64,000 bases of DNA, from the sequence record ON528734, one strand, 5' to 3'. The notes below the pieces were generated by a model. That model saw nothing but the letters and a program-made list of their open reading frames with translations, was not told the DNA's origin and searched no databases. Numbering within the stretch: position 1 is the first letter of the stretch; each line of letters starts with the position of its first letter. The translations under genes and the position numbers were made by a program. Positions 2,051 through 35,049 of the stretch are shown piece after piece. Source of the DNA: Shigella phage ESh24.

Positions 2051-2791
2051 ATGATTAGTGACTCTATGACAGTTGAAGAAATCCGTCTTCATTTAGGGCT
2101 TGCATTAAAAGAAAAAGATTTCGTAGTTGATAAAACTGGTGTTAAAACTATTGAAATTATTGGCGCATCATTTGTAGCAGATGAACCGTTTATTTTTGGC
2201 GCTCTTAATGATGAATACATTCAGCGTGAACTTGAATGGTATAAATCTAAGAGTTTGTTTGTTAAAGATATTCCAGGTGAAACACCAAAGATTTGGCAGC
2301 AGGTAGCATCTTCTAAAGGTGAAATTAACTCGAATTATGGTTGGGCTATCTGGTCAGAAGATAACTATGCTCAATATGACATGTGTTTAGCTGAACTTGG
2401 TCAAAATCCTGATTCTCGACGTGGTATCATGATTTATACTCGTCCATCCATGCAATTTGACTACAATAAAGATGGTATGTCAGATTTCATGTGTACTAAT
2501 ACAGTACAGTACCTGATTCGTGATAAGAAAGTCAATGCAGTAGTAAGCATGCGCTCAAATGACGTGGTCTTCGGATTCCGTAATGATTATGCATGGCAAA
2601 AATACGTATTAGATAAATTAGTATCTGATTTGAATGCAGGCGATTCAACTCGTCAGTATAAAGCAGGTTCTATTATATGGAATGTCGGAAGTCTTCATGT
2701 ATATTCTCGTCATTTTTACTTGGTTGATCATTGGTGGAATACTGGCGAAACTCATATTGTGAAAAAAGACTATAAAGGTGAGTGGAAATGA
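2051..2791 (+). CDS. 42: dCMP hydroxymethylase gp42
   Basis: 246 aa; thymidylate-synthase-like fold protein at the T4 gene 42 position. Confidence 0.9.
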   Translation: MISDSMTVEEIRLHLGLALKEKDFVVDKTGVKTIEIIGASFVADEPFIFGALNDEYIQRELEWYKSKSLFVKDIPGETPKIWQQVASSKGEINSNYGWAIWSEDNYAQYDMCLAELGQNPDSRRGIMIYTRPSMQFDYNKDGMSDFMCTNTVQYLIRDKKVNAVVSMRSNDVVFGFRNDYAWQKYVLDKLVSDLNAGDSTRQYKAGSIIWNVGSLHVYSRHFYLVDHWWNTGETHIVKKDYKGEWK

Positions 2792-3630
2792 TTCAATTCG
2801 TAATTCCAAGCTATCAACGTGTAGGGGCAGTTTCTGCCATTGATATGTTTCCGACTGATTATGAACCTCATATTGTAGTGCGTGAACACGAAGAAAAAGC
2901 TTATTATGATGCCTATGGGTCTAAAGCTAAAATTATAACTATTCCTGATGATGTAAACGGAATTGCCGGTACTCGTAAAGCAATTACTGATATGTATGCA
3001 GGTCAACGAATCTGGATGATTGACGATGATACTACTATTCGTATGAGTTCAATGCGAAAAAGAGATGACCGTCGTTGTGTAGATAAAGTCAATCAATTAA
3101 CCCGTGAACAGTTCTATGAATTGATTCAATACGTTGAAGATGCCATGGATTGCGGGTATTATCACGGTCATGCTCGGCTACCAATTTTTAAAATTACTTC
3201 ATCTTGGGGTAATTATCGTGAAAATTCATATGGATTCACGAATACATGGTATGACCTTGGAAAACTTACGACAGAACAAATTGGGTATGGAAAAATTGAT
3301 TTATGCGAAGATATGTATGCATTTCTCAATTTAATTAATCAAGGTTATCCGCATTTGGCCTTGTTCAAATATCTTGTTGTATCCGGAAAAGCACAGGCTC
3401 CTGGCGGGTGCAGTTCAATTCGTAGTAATTCTAAACATAATAGAGCGCTTGAGCAGATTAATAGAGAGTTTCCAGAGCAAGCTCGTTGGAAAACTTCTAA
3501 TATTGAAAAACGAAAATCGTTGGGTGAAGAAGATGAACCATTAAAGGTTCTTCGCATGTGTGTTTCGCGCAAAGAAAAATCAGAAGCATTTCATAAGTTT
3601 AATGCTATTCATCCGATAGCAGTTGATTAA
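2788..3630 (+). CDS. DNA glucosyltransferase, probably T2/T6-type beta-glucosyl-HMC-alpha-glucosyltransferase (not T4 beta-gt)
   Basis: ATG overlaps the gene 42 stop; 280 aa; sits at the beta-gt locus between 42 and uvsX but does not resemble the recalled 351-aa T4 beta-gt. Confidence 0.6.
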   Translation: MIQFVIPSYQRVGAVSAIDMFPTDYEPHIVVREHEEKAYYDAYGSKAKIITIPDDVNGIAGTRKAITDMYAGQRIWMIDDDTTIRMSSMRKRDDRRCVDKVNQLTREQFYELIQYVEDAMDCGYYHGHARLPIFKITSSWGNYRENSYGFTNTWYDLGKLTTEQIGYGKIDLCEDMYAFLNLINQGYPHLALFKYLVVSGKAQAPGGCSSIRSNSKHNRALEQINREFPEQARWKTSNIEKRKSLGEEDEPLKVLRMCVSRKEKSEAFHKFNAIHPIAVD

Positions 3631-7888: not shown

Positions 7889-8053
7889 ATGAAAACATAT
7901 AAAGAATTTATCAAAGAAGATATGGTCGCTGGAGATTCAGGTGGTAATCCTGAAAATATCTCTACTGGAACAACATCAGGTGCTGTAGTAAATAAAGGTC
8001 CTGAACAGATTCCTAAAAAGAAAAAAGAGGAATCTAAAGAAAAAGAAGAGTAA
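7889..8053 (+). CDS. Hypothetical small protein (54 aa, 61.1 position)
   Basis: ATG 2 nt after the previous stop; Lys/Glu-rich C-terminus. Confidence 0.45.
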   Translation: MKTYKEFIKEDMVAGDSGGNPENISTGTTSGAVVNKGPEQIPKKKKEESKEKEE

Positions 8054-8055
8054 AA

Positions 8056-9084
8056 ATGTCATCAATACCTTGGATTGATAATGAGTTTGCATACCGTGCA
8101 TTAGCTCATTTACCTAAATTCACACAAGTAAATAATAGTTCAACTTTTAAATTGCGGTTTAGATGCCCAGTGTGTGGAGATTCAAAAACCGACCAGAATA
8201 AAGCTCGTGGATGGTATTATGGTGATAATAATGAAGGAAACATTCATTGTTATAACTGTAACTATCATGCACCAATCGGAATATATTTAAAGGAGTTTGA
8301 ACCTGATTTATATCGTGAGTATATCTTTGAAATAAGAAAAGAAAAAGGTAAAAGTCGTCCAGTAGAAAAACCTAAAGAACTTCCTAAACAACCTGAGAAG
8401 AAAATAATTAAATCTCTTCCGTCATGTGTTCGATTAGATAAACTGGCGGAAGACCATCCAATTATAAAATATGTAAAAGCTCGTTGTATTCCAAAGGATA
8501 AATGGAAATATCTTTGGTTTACAACCGAATGGCCTAAATTAGTTAATAGCATAGCACCGGGAACATATAAAAAGGAAATTTCTGAGCCTCGTCTTGTTAT
8601 TCCAATTTATAATGCTAATGGAAAAGCTGAGTCTTTTCAAGGACGTGCATTAAAGAAAGATGCTCCTCAAAAATATATCACCATCAAAGCTTATCCTGAG
8701 GCAACAAAAATCTATGGAGTCGAACGAGTTAAAGATGGTGATGTATATGTTCTAGAAGGACCTATAGATTCGCTTTTTATTGAAAATGGTATAGCTATTA
8801 CGGGTGGTCAATTAGACCTAGAAATTGTTCCATTTAAAGATAGACGTGTGTGGGTTTTAGATAATGAACCTCGTCATCCTGACACTATTAAGCGAATGAC
8901 TAAATTAGTTGATGCAGGAGAAAGGGTTATGTTTTGGGATAAATCTCCCTGGAAATCAAAAGATGTTAATGATATGATTAGAAAGGAAGGTGCAACCCCT
9001 GAACAAATTATGGAATATATGAAAAATAATATTGCCCAGGGGTTAATGGCTAAAATGCGGTTATCTAAATATGCTAAGATTTAA
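8056..9084 (+). CDS. 61: DNA primase gp61
   Basis: 342 aa; N-terminal zinc ribbon CPVCGDS...CYNC; matches T4 gp61. Confidence 0.95.
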   Translation: MSSIPWIDNEFAYRALAHLPKFTQVNNSSTFKLRFRCPVCGDSKTDQNKARGWYYGDNNEGNIHCYNCNYHAPIGIYLKEFEPDLYREYIFEIRKEKGKSRPVEKPKELPKQPEKKIIKSLPSCVRLDKLAEDHPIIKYVKARCIPKDKWKYLWFTTEWPKLVNSIAPGTYKKEISEPRLVIPIYNANGKAESFQGRALKKDAPQKYITIKAYPEATKIYGVERVKDGDVYVLEGPIDSLFIENGIAITGGQLDLEIVPFKDRRVWVLDNEPRHPDTIKRMTKLVDAGERVMFWDKSPWKSKDVNDMIRKEGATPEQIMEYMKNNIAQGLMAKMRLSKYAKI

Positions 9085-9281
9085 ATTAACCCAACTAAAG
9101 CAAATGCTAAATCTACGAATGTATCAAGAGTAACTACTGGAATACTAACGCCATGAGCAATAGCAACTGGCGATAAAACAAAATTCCAAAGTAAAATTCC
9201 TATCATAGCAGAAATAGTAAAAGCTATACGTTTCTTATTACCTTTTATGGCATTAACAAGTGCCATTAATTTTTGTACCAT
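9081..9281 (-). CDS. Small membrane protein (66 aa), convergent with gene 61
   Basis: Minus-strand ORF preceded by AAGGAGG 7 nt before its ATG; two predicted transmembrane segments. Confidence 0.45.
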   Translation of the reverse strand: MVQKLMALVNAIKGNKKRIAFTISAMIGILLWNFVLSPVAIAHGVSIPVVTLDTFVDLAFALVGLI

Positions 9282-9316
9282 ATGTCCTCCTTTAAATTAA
9301 TATTTATCATAAATTT

Positions 9317-9348
9317 GTTTACTTTCTCAGCTTGTTATGGTATTATAA
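9317..9348 (+). promoter_or_regulatory. Early promoter upstream of the 186-aa ORF and dam
   Basis: GTTTAC 9317-9322, TATTATAA 9341-9348. Confidence 0.55.
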
Positions 9349-9371
9349 AATAAATTGCTGAGGATGATATA

Positions 9372-10711
<1,340 letters not shown>

Positions 10712-17548: not shown

Positions 17549-17794
17549 GTGGAAATAACTAAAGACCAGTTTTATCTACTTCAAGATAAAGTGAGCGAAA
17601 TATATGAAATAGCTTATAGTAAAAATTATAGAAATGTAAAAATTGAATCAGGCAAGTTAATGCTTCAATTGGAAGAAATTGAACGAGATTTGATTGCGTT
17701 AGAATTCTTTTGTGGTGAAGTGAAAACTGTTACAATCAGTGATTACATTTTAGGTGAAATTAGCCATCTTTATAAGGTGATTATTAATGTTTGA
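17549..17794 (+). CDS. Hypothetical protein (about 81 aa; GTG start after GAGGAA)
   Basis: ORF between dda and dexA. Confidence 0.45.
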   Translation: MEITKDQFYLLQDKVSEIYEIAYSKNYRNVKIESGKLMLQLEEIERDLIALEFFCGEVKTVTISDYILGEISHLYKVIINV

Positions 17795-18470
17795 TTTTAT
17801 TATAGATTTTGAAACAATGGGAAGTGGTGAAAAAGCAGCTGTTATTGATTTGGCTGTTATTGCCTTTGACCCTAATCCAGAGGTAGTTGAAACATTTGAT
17901 GAATTAGTTTCGCGCGGCATTAAAATCAAATTTGATTTAAAAAGCCAAAAAGGACATCGTCTTTTTACTAAAAGCACTATTGAATGGTGGAAAAATCAGT
18001 CTCCTGAAGCTCGAAAAAATATTGCACAATCAGATGAAGATGTAAGCACTATCGATGGTATTGTAAAATTTAATGATTACATCAATGCACATAACATCGA
18101 TCCCTGGAAATCTCAGGGTTGGTGCCGTGGAATGTCGTTTGATTTTCCAATTTTAGTCGATCTCATTCGCGATATTCAACGTCTTAACGGCGTTTCCGAG
18201 AATGAGCTTGATACGTTTAAGTTAGAACCTTGTAAATTCTGGAATCAGCGTGATATTCGTACCAGAATTGAAGCACTTCTCCTTGTTCGTGATATGACCA
18301 CGTGTCCTCTTCCAAAGGGAACTTTAGATGGATTCGTTGCGCATAATTCTATTCATGACTGTGCGAAAGACATTCTGATGATGAAGTATGCTTTGCGATA
18401 TGCTATGGGTCTTGAAGATGCTCCATCAGAGGAAGAGTGCGATCCTCTGTCTCTTCCAACAAAACGATAA
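17787..18470 (+). CDS. dexA: Exonuclease A (DexA), DnaQ-like 3'-5' exonuclease
   Basis: 227 aa; DEDDh motifs (IIDFETMG, HNSIHDCAKD). Confidence 0.9.
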   Translation: MFDFIIDFETMGSGEKAAVIDLAVIAFDPNPEVVETFDELVSRGIKIKFDLKSQKGHRLFTKSTIEWWKNQSPEARKNIAQSDEDVSTIDGIVKFNDYINAHNIDPWKSQGWCRGMSFDFPILVDLIRDIQRLNGVSENELDTFKLEPCKFWNQRDIRTRIEALLLVRDMTTCPLPKGTLDGFVAHNSIHDCAKDILMMKYALRYAMGLEDAPSEEECDPLSLPTKR

Positions 18471-21133: not shown

Positions 21134-21505
21134 ATGTTTAAAATCGGTAAGAAATATCGTATTCGCGAAGGCGAAGAAAAGAAATATCTAATGTCTGCTA
21201 TTTATAGGAATGGTTCTATTAATGCTGTAATATCTACAAGCGAATTTATCGTTGAAGATATGAAAGGTAATAATGTTACAATGATTAGTACAGCATCTGG
21301 AAATGATGGAAAAATTCTTCACAGTTTTCAGAGTAATGTTCTAATTTATGATGAAGAATTTGACTTCTTCGAAGAAGTTCCTGAAGATTTTGATTTTGAA
21401 TGCACCATCACTATGAAATCTGGTGACCCTCTTTCTTTTACAGTTAAAGATGAAAGAAGCCGTTTAAGAATTATTAGTCTCCTTCAAGCCATTAAATTTG
21501 AGTGA
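21134..21505 (+). CDS. Hypothetical protein (about 124 aa)
   Basis: ORF with TGATTATG overlap. Confidence 0.55.
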   Translation: MFKIGKKYRIREGEEKKYLMSAIYRNGSINAVISTSEFIVEDMKGNNVTMISTASGNDGKILHSFQSNVLIYDEEFDFFEEVPEDFDFECTITMKSGDPLSFTVKDERSRLRIISLLQAIKFE

Positions 21506-35041: not shown

Positions 35042-35049
35042 TATTTATA
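35042..35049 (-). promoter_or_regulatory. Late promoter for t
   Basis: TATAAATA on the minus strand about 20 bp upstream of the t start. Confidence 0.65.

Follow-up and report, generated by a model that had tools for sequence, protein, structure and literature searches.

Within the early gene block of Shigella phage ESh24 (sequence record ON528734), one short open reading frame (ORF) runs against the direction of its neighbours. The question that this locus raises is whether the ORF is a gene, an accident of AT-rich DNA or an acquired cassette and, if it is a gene, when it is expressed and what its product may do.

A lone convergent ORF behind the primase gene

The window, by which we mean the whole 64,000-nucleotide stretch of DNA that was analysed, is a segment of a Tequatrovirus (T2/T6/T4-like) genome, reversed relative to the T4 map. 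Its plus strand carries the early and middle genes 42, uvsX, 40, 41, dmd, sp, 61, dam, 56 and soc and, further on, 39, rIIA and rIIB, while the minus strand holds the late tail-fibre and holin genes (34-38 and t), at 34.3-44.9 kb. The original prediction had described a lone minus-strand gene in the early block, encoding 66 amino acids (aa), preceded by a strong AAGGAGG ribosome-binding site and ending in an overlap with the stop of gene 61. All of these elements were found again in the window, and the near-identical annotated phage JB75 agrees: its orthologue, JB75_0238 (‘putative membrane protein’), is the sole opposite-strand coding sequence (CDS) among approximately 50 from gene 43 to rIIA. 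The features of the locus that bear on the argument are as follows.

8056..9084, plus strand: gene 61 (DNA primase), the convergent neighbour, whose last 4 nt are shared with the 3' end of the 66-aa ORF
9081..9281, minus strand: CDS with an ATG start for a small membrane protein of 66 aa, PHROG_2024 (RB69ORF029w / RB32ORF030w), assigned from the ORF list, a PHROG_2024 match, dN/dS and synteny
9247..9276, plus strand: predicted intrinsic terminator of gene 61 transcripts, an 8-bp hairpin (9247-9266) with a T-tract, inside codons 2-12 of the minus-strand ORF
9286..9292, minus strand: Shine-Dalgarno sequence AAGGAGG, 4 nt ahead of the ATG; AAGGAG(G) or AGGAGG is conserved in every lineage
9301..9308, minus strand: putative promoter, a T4 late-promoter-like box GATAAATA that deviates from the consensus TATAAATA solely at -13 and is followed by an AT-rich stretch

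The stop codons of the ORF and of gene 61 interlock through the 4-nt overlap, and a gap of 287 nt separates gene 61 from the next plus-strand gene. The surroundings are made up of replication and nucleotide-metabolism genes, namely the primase, a restriction-enzyme-like ORF, dam and the dCTPase. The adjacent ORF of 186 aa (9372-9932) is variable, being present in the window and deleted in T4. No paralogue of the 66-aa protein was found elsewhere in the 64-kb window.

One could regard the 287-nt gap as merely a spacer that holds a terminator and a promoter, with the open frame on the opposite strand being accidental. AT-rich phage DNA is rich in antisense ORFs, and positions 1-34000 of the window alone contain 53 minus-strand ORFs of at least 50 aa; furthermore, a plus-strand terminator lies inside the ORF, and the curated T4 reference (NC_000866) carries no annotation of it. 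The length of the ORF is not significant by itself, but the ORF together with a ribosome-binding site within a non-coding gap is significant. It is the only one of the 53 that possesses a Shine-Dalgarno sequence, and a minus-strand AGGAGG followed by a start codon occurs a single time in the same 34 kb, ahead of this ORF.

Comparison with homologues speaks more directly against an accident. Pairwise dN/dS values range from 0.09 to 0.34, and synonymous sites are saturated between genera. Substitutions show a coding-type bias, falling most often at third, then first, then second codon positions (for example 26, 9 and 39 at first, second and third positions between the window and contig L007), and protein motifs are retained at 20-50% identity despite the saturated synonymous sites. 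Among full-length family members, length variants differ by whole codons. The Shine-Dalgarno sequence is conserved, a paralogue exists in a related phage, and of 692 records, 685 carry an intact ORF. Judged by these patterns, the 66-aa ORF is a genuine protein-coding gene under purifying selection; the substitution pattern effectively refutes a chance ORF, a reading that we consider scarcely credible.

Distribution and ancestry of the gene

Our bioinformatic searches place the 66-aa protein in an existing family. Residues 2-66 of the protein align with all 65 positions of the PHROG_2024 profile, a full-length match (E 8.1e-31), and PHROG_2024, RB69ORF029w and RB32ORF030w are one and the same family, with no difference from the protein described here and no function assigned. 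The RB14 record names the orthologue ‘RB32ORF030w, similar to RB69ORF029w’, and NCBI lists the exact protein of the window under Escherichia phage vB_EcoM_F1 (‘hypothetical protein F1_0032’). The gene has been catalogued since the RB69, RB32 and RB14 genomes and is a ‘hypothetical protein’ in hundreds of records. Searches of the literature for RB32ORF030w, phrog_2024 and VOG1982, and for T4 Ribo-seq or small-ORF studies, found no paper on the gene. In NC_000866 the ORF is intact at 17738..17938 on the plus strand, within an unannotated gap of 309 bp. Automated annotation of T4 does call the ORF, and a T4 record annotated by pyrodigal/PHROG tags the orthologue phrog=2024.

A tblastn search with the Mosigvirus orthologue as the query recovered family members from 692 phage records, and in 685 the match was near full length; the records cover essentially all of the approximately 500 Tequatrovirus genomes with a gp61 at least 95% identical. 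With a broader profile, the wider family comprised 113 clusters at 90% identity, every one of them named ‘hypothetical’. When 1.84 billion representative proteins were searched exhaustively with an HMM, the six hits all came from the same family. On the evidence of these searches, the family is confined to T4-like phages.

The position of the gene is stable, too. Just downstream of gene 61, in at least five genera, it is always convergent with gene 61 or with the downstream neighbour of gene 61. Syntenic orthologues were identified in T4, in JB75 and Yersinia phage fPS-65, in the Mosigvirus phages phiE142 and moha, in the Gaprivervirus phages VR26 and SP18, in Jiaodavirus KEN22, in Marfavirus BM7 and in several unclassified metagenomic T4-like contigs. 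VR26 also has a tandem paralogue, VR26_032, of which SP18 keeps only a truncated remnant, and the Marfavirus gene belongs to this second type. Krischvirus, Pseudotevenvirus, Roskildevirus and Tulanevirus lack the gene at this locus, a same-strand gene directly following gene 61 there. It is, therefore, not essential to the T4 way of life. The gene is an accessory gene of the T-even group, present in several Tevenvirinae genera and in Marfavirus, with a product of 63-68 aa.

This distribution bears on the suggestion, made in the original prediction, that the ORF could be an acquired cassette, and more specifically on the idea of a recently acquired mobile element or moron. A lone gene on the opposite strand, beside a 186-aa neighbour that T4 has lost, has the look of such an insertion. 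However, the gene is found at one position and in one orientation in Tequatrovirus, Mosigvirus, Gaprivervirus, Jiaodavirus, Marfavirus and metagenomic contigs, and the divergence of its product parallels that of the neighbouring primase. Its GC content of 31% is like that of its neighbours (34%, 27.5% and 28%), neither flanking repeats nor mobility genes accompany it, and the restriction of the family to T4-like phages is again at odds with a mobile origin. The suggestion did not survive these comparisons, and recent acquisition appears very improbable. Taken together, dN/dS, codon-position bias, the conserved Shine-Dalgarno sequence, the fixed locus and the matching GC content lead us to reject both the chance-ORF and the acquired-cassette readings. 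The gene looks ancestral to the T4-like phage group.

A candidate late promoter and overlap with gene 61 transcripts

The original prediction had proposed a search for a minus-strand promoter near 9282-9370, upstream of the ORF, and a promoter-like sequence of the late type, the box GATAAATA at 9301-9308, was found there. The box lies 8 nt upstream of AAGGAGG, so that the minus strand reads GATAAATA-ttaattta-AAGGAGG-acat-ATG, with a predicted transcript start near 9294-9296 on that strand. The holin gene t, in the same window, has its box at 35049 (minus strand) in the arrangement TATAAATA-tccttaaa-AGGAGG-gtct-ATG. Box, Shine-Dalgarno sequence and ATG are spaced almost alike in the two genes. 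Directly after the box of the 66-aa ORF comes ttaatttaaa, an AT-rich segment of the kind found in late promoters. Sites of the form NATAAATA are scarce, numbering just 13 in the 64-kb window with both strands counted. In NC_000866 the corresponding putative late promoter lies at 17709..17716, with a predicted start at approximately 17,722 on the plus strand.

In most lineages the motif NATAAATA (ATAAATA) is retained while the spacers are wholly different between genera. The variation is concentrated at position -13, which is G in most Tequatrovirus phages, T4 included; A in dam-less Tequatrovirus contigs, Mosigvirus and L004; and C in Gaprivervirus and Jiaodavirus. Marfavirus BM7 possesses a perfect TATAAATA. 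Two lineages are exceptions or weaker cases: contig L007, in which TATTAATA stands just 3 nt from the Shine-Dalgarno sequence, a poor geometry, and L025, in which the box is further upstream, more than 20 nt from the Shine-Dalgarno sequence. The box thus falls short of the perfect consensus in most lineages, and at -13 G or C is a rarer departure from it than A. Of 50 listed late-promoter sites in T4, 32 are perfect, nine have A at -13 and the others show single deviations, -13 being the position that varies most and at which deviation is tolerated (Geiduschek and Kassavetis, PMC2988020). The same source describes late promoters as AT-rich downstream of the box and in need of no -35 element.

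Set beside T4 genes of the gp55-dependent late class such as t, the 66-aa gene shares the late strand, near-identical spacing and AT-rich sequence downstream, and has a candidate 8-bp A/T box roughly a helical turn ahead of its predicted start. It differs in having G (A or C in other lineages) in place of T at -13, its promoter is putative, and its protein is unrelated to T.

The polarity of the gene points in the same direction. The 66-aa ORF lies on the strand of the late genes t, 38, 37, 36, 35 and 34 and opposite all early genes; early and middle transcripts of T4 have one polarity, and only late transcripts run in the opposite direction (PMC2988020). A T4 dRNA-seq preprint gives 150 phage start sites, 22 of them antisense (bioRxiv 10.1101/2024.04.04.588121). 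A scan for sigma-70 promoters yielded no more minus-strand hits than shuffled sequence did, and an early promoter for the 66-aa ORF is therefore not indicated. Because the late-type box and its geometry, the AT-rich downstream segment and the late-strand polarity coincide, the gene is most probably late, and we consider it very probable that it is a late-expressed membrane protein gene. RNA polymerase with the late sigma factor gp55, together with gp33 and the gp45 clamp, would start transcription at the variant late promoter, most probably late in infection only, and a short leader would supply the strong Shine-Dalgarno sequence.

Transcription of gene 61 may add a further layer to this timing. 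A terminator scan recovered one terminator where 0.3 were expected, the hairpin having a fold energy of -10.3 kcal/mol (z = -2.5), and the record of Yersinia phage fPS-65 annotates the same terminator. The start codon of the ORF (9279-9281) is situated just past it. Because the terminator lies inside codons 2-12 of the ORF, the 3' untranslated region of the primase mRNA in Tequatrovirus is antisense to the entire ORF. Early gene 61 transcripts would cross the whole ORF before ending at the hairpin, and productive expression of the ORF should consequently be confined to late times. In the other direction, no minus-strand terminator was found in 8000-9120, a stretch that extends more than 1 kb past the ORF within gene 61; the late ORF transcript thus probably continues antisense into gene 61.

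It is tempting to consider that RNA, rather than protein, is the main product of the locus. A late promoter firing into the primase/helicase cluster could, through transcriptional interference or double-stranded RNA, turn off the expression of early and middle genes, leaving the ORF secondary; conversely, the 3' untranslated region of gene 61 could silence the ORF early, in an excludon-like manner. The long stretch free of a minus-strand terminator suits the first version, and the position of the gene 61 terminator beyond the ORF suits the second. Transcription of both strands, at different times, is documented for several T4 sites (PMC2988020), and other minus-strand TATAAATA boxes, at 21206 and 58563, lie inside early genes with no ORF attached to them. 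Nevertheless, purifying selection at the level of amino acids and a strong, conserved ribosome-binding site indicate that the protein itself is selected. A GC-rich hairpin, seen on inspection of the sequence between the convergent genes in Jiaodavirus and L007, may limit read-through, and no counterpart of the embedded terminator was found in Mosigvirus or Marfavirus. Since the embedded terminator is specific to Tequatrovirus and Jiaodavirus and L007 have the intergenic hairpin instead, an antisense role cannot be the conserved function. An Rfam search of 8500-10000 returned nothing relevant.

The comparison with excludon-like and type I toxin-antisense pairs is instructive in this respect. 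As in those systems, the gene for a small hydrophobic protein lies wholly within a convergent gene's antisense 3' untranslated region; unlike them, the 66-aa gene shows no sign of toxicity or of a dedicated antisense RNA, and its embedded terminator is Tequatrovirus-specific. Taken jointly, the two versions in which RNA is the main product seem improbable. An antisense RNA can be an additional role of the locus, though not its sole one, and mutual interference between the two transcription units, of early RNA with the ORF and of late RNA with gene 61, is probable and makes a plausible secondary role.

Predicted topology and possible functions of the protein

The locus is, in our favoured reading, first of all a late gene for a membrane protein. 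That the product is a small membrane protein, as originally predicted, is supported by both hydropathy and the helices of an AlphaFold model. The same prediction put it forward as a possible effector. Of the two transmembrane segments proposed at the same time, one stands: residues ~19-42 form a clear transmembrane helix (Kyte-Doolittle 1.7-2.3). The second is doubtful, residues 47-66 being hydrophobic but marginal as a transmembrane segment, with conserved acidic residues at D53 and D57. The AlphaFold model, built from an alignment of seven sequences (pLDDT 75.6), places helices at residues 2-13, 16-42 and 52-63, the last of which spans 12 residues. Digestion with trypsin would yield a single hydrophobic peptide of 48 residues, which may account for the absence of the protein from proteomic data.

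In every member of the family four to six Lys/Arg residues directly precede the transmembrane helix and none follows; by the positive-inside rule, this points to an N-terminus in the cytoplasm. Within the helix, the N-terminal half varies and contains many small residues; overall, Gly, Ala, Ser and Thr account for 7-10 of its 24 residues in most members and for 5 of 24 in BM7. Conservation is instead concentrated in the periplasm-proximal half of the helix and the loop that follows (LWNFVLxPxAxAxGxxxP), and in the alignment W32, N33, P38, G44 and P48 are invariant across both subtypes, forming the core W-N-x4-P-x5-G-x3-P. The C-terminal helix is acidic yet hydrophobic, and the protein ends in ...VGLI without a charged tail.

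We envisage a protein with its N-terminus in the cytoplasm and one firm transmembrane helix, its core in the periplasm-proximal half of that helix and the loop; the short acidic, hydrophobic C-terminal helix would either re-enter the membrane or rest on its outer face. The distribution of conserved residues points to a specific contact on the outer side of the inner membrane, through self-association or with a partner protein. The protein may do its work late in infection on the periplasmic side of that membrane, where it would oligomerise or bind a membrane protein as its partner.

No characterised protein or family was recovered in our comparisons. Profile searches of Pfam, NCBIfam and PADLOC with the ORF and five diverse homologues gave no match, a sequence-profile search of the PDB returned noise only (E >= 0.44), and Foldseek found no fold match to the AlphaFold model in the PDB. 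Against BFVD, Foldseek gave one significant match (E 2.5e-7), which itself belongs to the family. Those ranked second and third are phage proteins of 63 aa, one of them from Enterobacter phage CIP9, with E values of 0.1-0.25 and 24-31% identity; they are possible remote relatives.

A small, late protein of this kind invites comparison with holins, pinholins and antiholin-type lysis proteins. At 63-68 aa, with one firm and one weak hydrophobic segment, the family has dimensions of the expected order; its layout of late promoter and ribosome-binding site is almost that of gene t; and one family member in UniProt is labelled ‘Holin’, a name given by the submitter. The transmembrane helix is fairly rich in Gly, Ala, Ser and Thr, a composition reminiscent of SAR (releasable signal-anchor) domains. 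Pinholins and class II holins measure approximately 70 aa and have two transmembrane domains, as in S68 of phage 21. Like them, the 66-aa protein is a small phage protein of the inner membrane, predicted to be late, with two hydrophobic segments of which the first is fairly rich in small residues.

The differences weigh more heavily. No match to a Pfam or NCBIfam holin family was obtained with six diverse members at E cut-offs of 1 to 10, and Foldseek hits to ‘holin’ entries outside the family had E values of 5-6. The basic cluster of the 66-aa protein is N-terminal rather than C-terminal, and its hydrophobic C-terminus stops within or at the membrane, with no charged cytoplasmic tail. The second segment, too short or too acidic for a firm helix, leaves the protein short of two true transmembrane domains. 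Moreover, T4-type phages already possess holin T. The gene lies outside any lysis cassette, adjoining neither an endolysin nor a spanin nor t, although this criterion is weak in T4, where lysis genes are scattered. The dual-start motif (M1...K4...M6) occurs in Tequatrovirus only and was discarded as a holin hallmark; an ‘LS’ dipeptide resembling the one in MS2 L also varies, other lineages having LAP, IAP or VVP. A holin, pinholin or antiholin in the strict sense is, in our estimation, unlikely.

A different precedent is the superinfection immunity protein Imm of T4, whose gene is annotated in the same early block in JB75. Both are small inner-membrane proteins of the T-even accessory set; Imm, unlike the 66-aa gene, is encoded on the early strand and expressed early. 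We know of no sequence similarity between the two.

Considered as a whole, the locus is probably best explained as a conserved accessory gene for an inner-membrane protein that is transcribed late. What the protein does can be suggested more tentatively. That it acts at the periplasmic face and modulates late events of lysis or the envelope from the inner membrane, for instance the timing of lysis, the control of the holin or some other envelope process, is possible, if less than probable. Less likely still, and on a par with a holin proper, is the idea that the fold or motif of this conserved late protein of the inner membrane is new and that the protein is an unrecognised player at the T-even envelope late in infection, its expression perhaps gated in antisense by the primase mRNA. 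Were this so, the protein might, for example, modulate holin T or lysis inhibition, block superinfection late in infection or counter membrane-acting host defences. In other respects it is one more uncharacterised small phage membrane protein, expressed, as far as its upstream sequence suggests, in the standard late manner of T4.

Adding the ORF to the gene list of T4 would be a small annotation correction, albeit in a reference organism. The ORF is intact in T4, and purifying selection maintains it in essentially every Tequatrovirus genome as well as in at least four other genera. It would also offer a new target for those interested in the late membrane events of these phages, among them lysis timing, lysis inhibition and exclusion.

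The 66-aa ORF in T4 and the gene 61 terminator

T4 (L003) carries the 66-aa ORF intact (3239..3439, +), with four substitutions relative to the window, all of which are conservative. No gene is annotated in the dam-61 gap (17626-17934) of the curated T4 reference NC_000866; the ORF is included in OZ209023, a newer T4 record annotated by pyrodigal. In the window, the ORF also accommodates a structure belonging to the opposite strand:

9247-9276, plus strand: gene 61 terminator hairpin, within the 66-aa ORF

Codons 6-12 of the ORF (M-A-L-V-N-A-I) encode this hairpin and, hence, the segment is under a double constraint of RNA structure and coding. In Mosigvirus and Marfavirus, a gene 61 terminator was sought at the equivalent place and not found.

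A second subtype and late-promoter-like boxes

The protein family includes a second subtype, with the sequence MGT(L/I)FYQIWKL...FLWNLLVVPIAATQGV..., which occurs in three further loci:

L016, 2207..2407: tandem duplicate, Gaprivervirus VR26
L017, 2215..2310: truncated remnant, SP18
L022, 2511..2711: sole copy of the family, Marfavirus (Kpn BM7)

The Marfavirus gene possesses a perfect TATAAATA box, a putative late promoter. Perfect copies of this box also occur within plus-strand early genes of the window:

21206, minus strand: perfect box
58563, minus strand: perfect box

No ORF preceded by a Shine-Dalgarno sequence was found downstream of either, and each box may serve as a late promoter that drives antisense transcription.

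The dam region and phage type

Three further plus-strand genes of the window merit consideration:

9372-9932, plus strand: 186-aa ORF, directly 5' of dam
9932-10711, plus strand: dam, GATC-specific Dam methylase
2788-3630, plus strand: glucosyltransferase, 280 aa

The 186-aa ORF ends in an ATGA overlap with the dam start (9932). Its assigned family, PHROG_8706, has no assigned function; its matches to type II restriction enzymes are weak, yet consistent (PADLOC REase_II, E 8e-5; Pfam DpnII, E 0.0045, which falls short of the curated cutoff). The ORF and Dam methylase could together constitute a restriction-modification pair carried by the phage. In T4, the ORF has been lost except for a 20-codon C-terminal remnant 5' of dam.

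The JB75 counterpart of the glucosyltransferase gene is annotated as a beta-glucosyl-HMC-alpha-glucosyltransferase. We take the window enzyme to be of the T2/T6 type, rather than the 351-aa beta-glucosyltransferase of T4, and the window, therefore, to represent a T2/T6-like Tequatrovirus.
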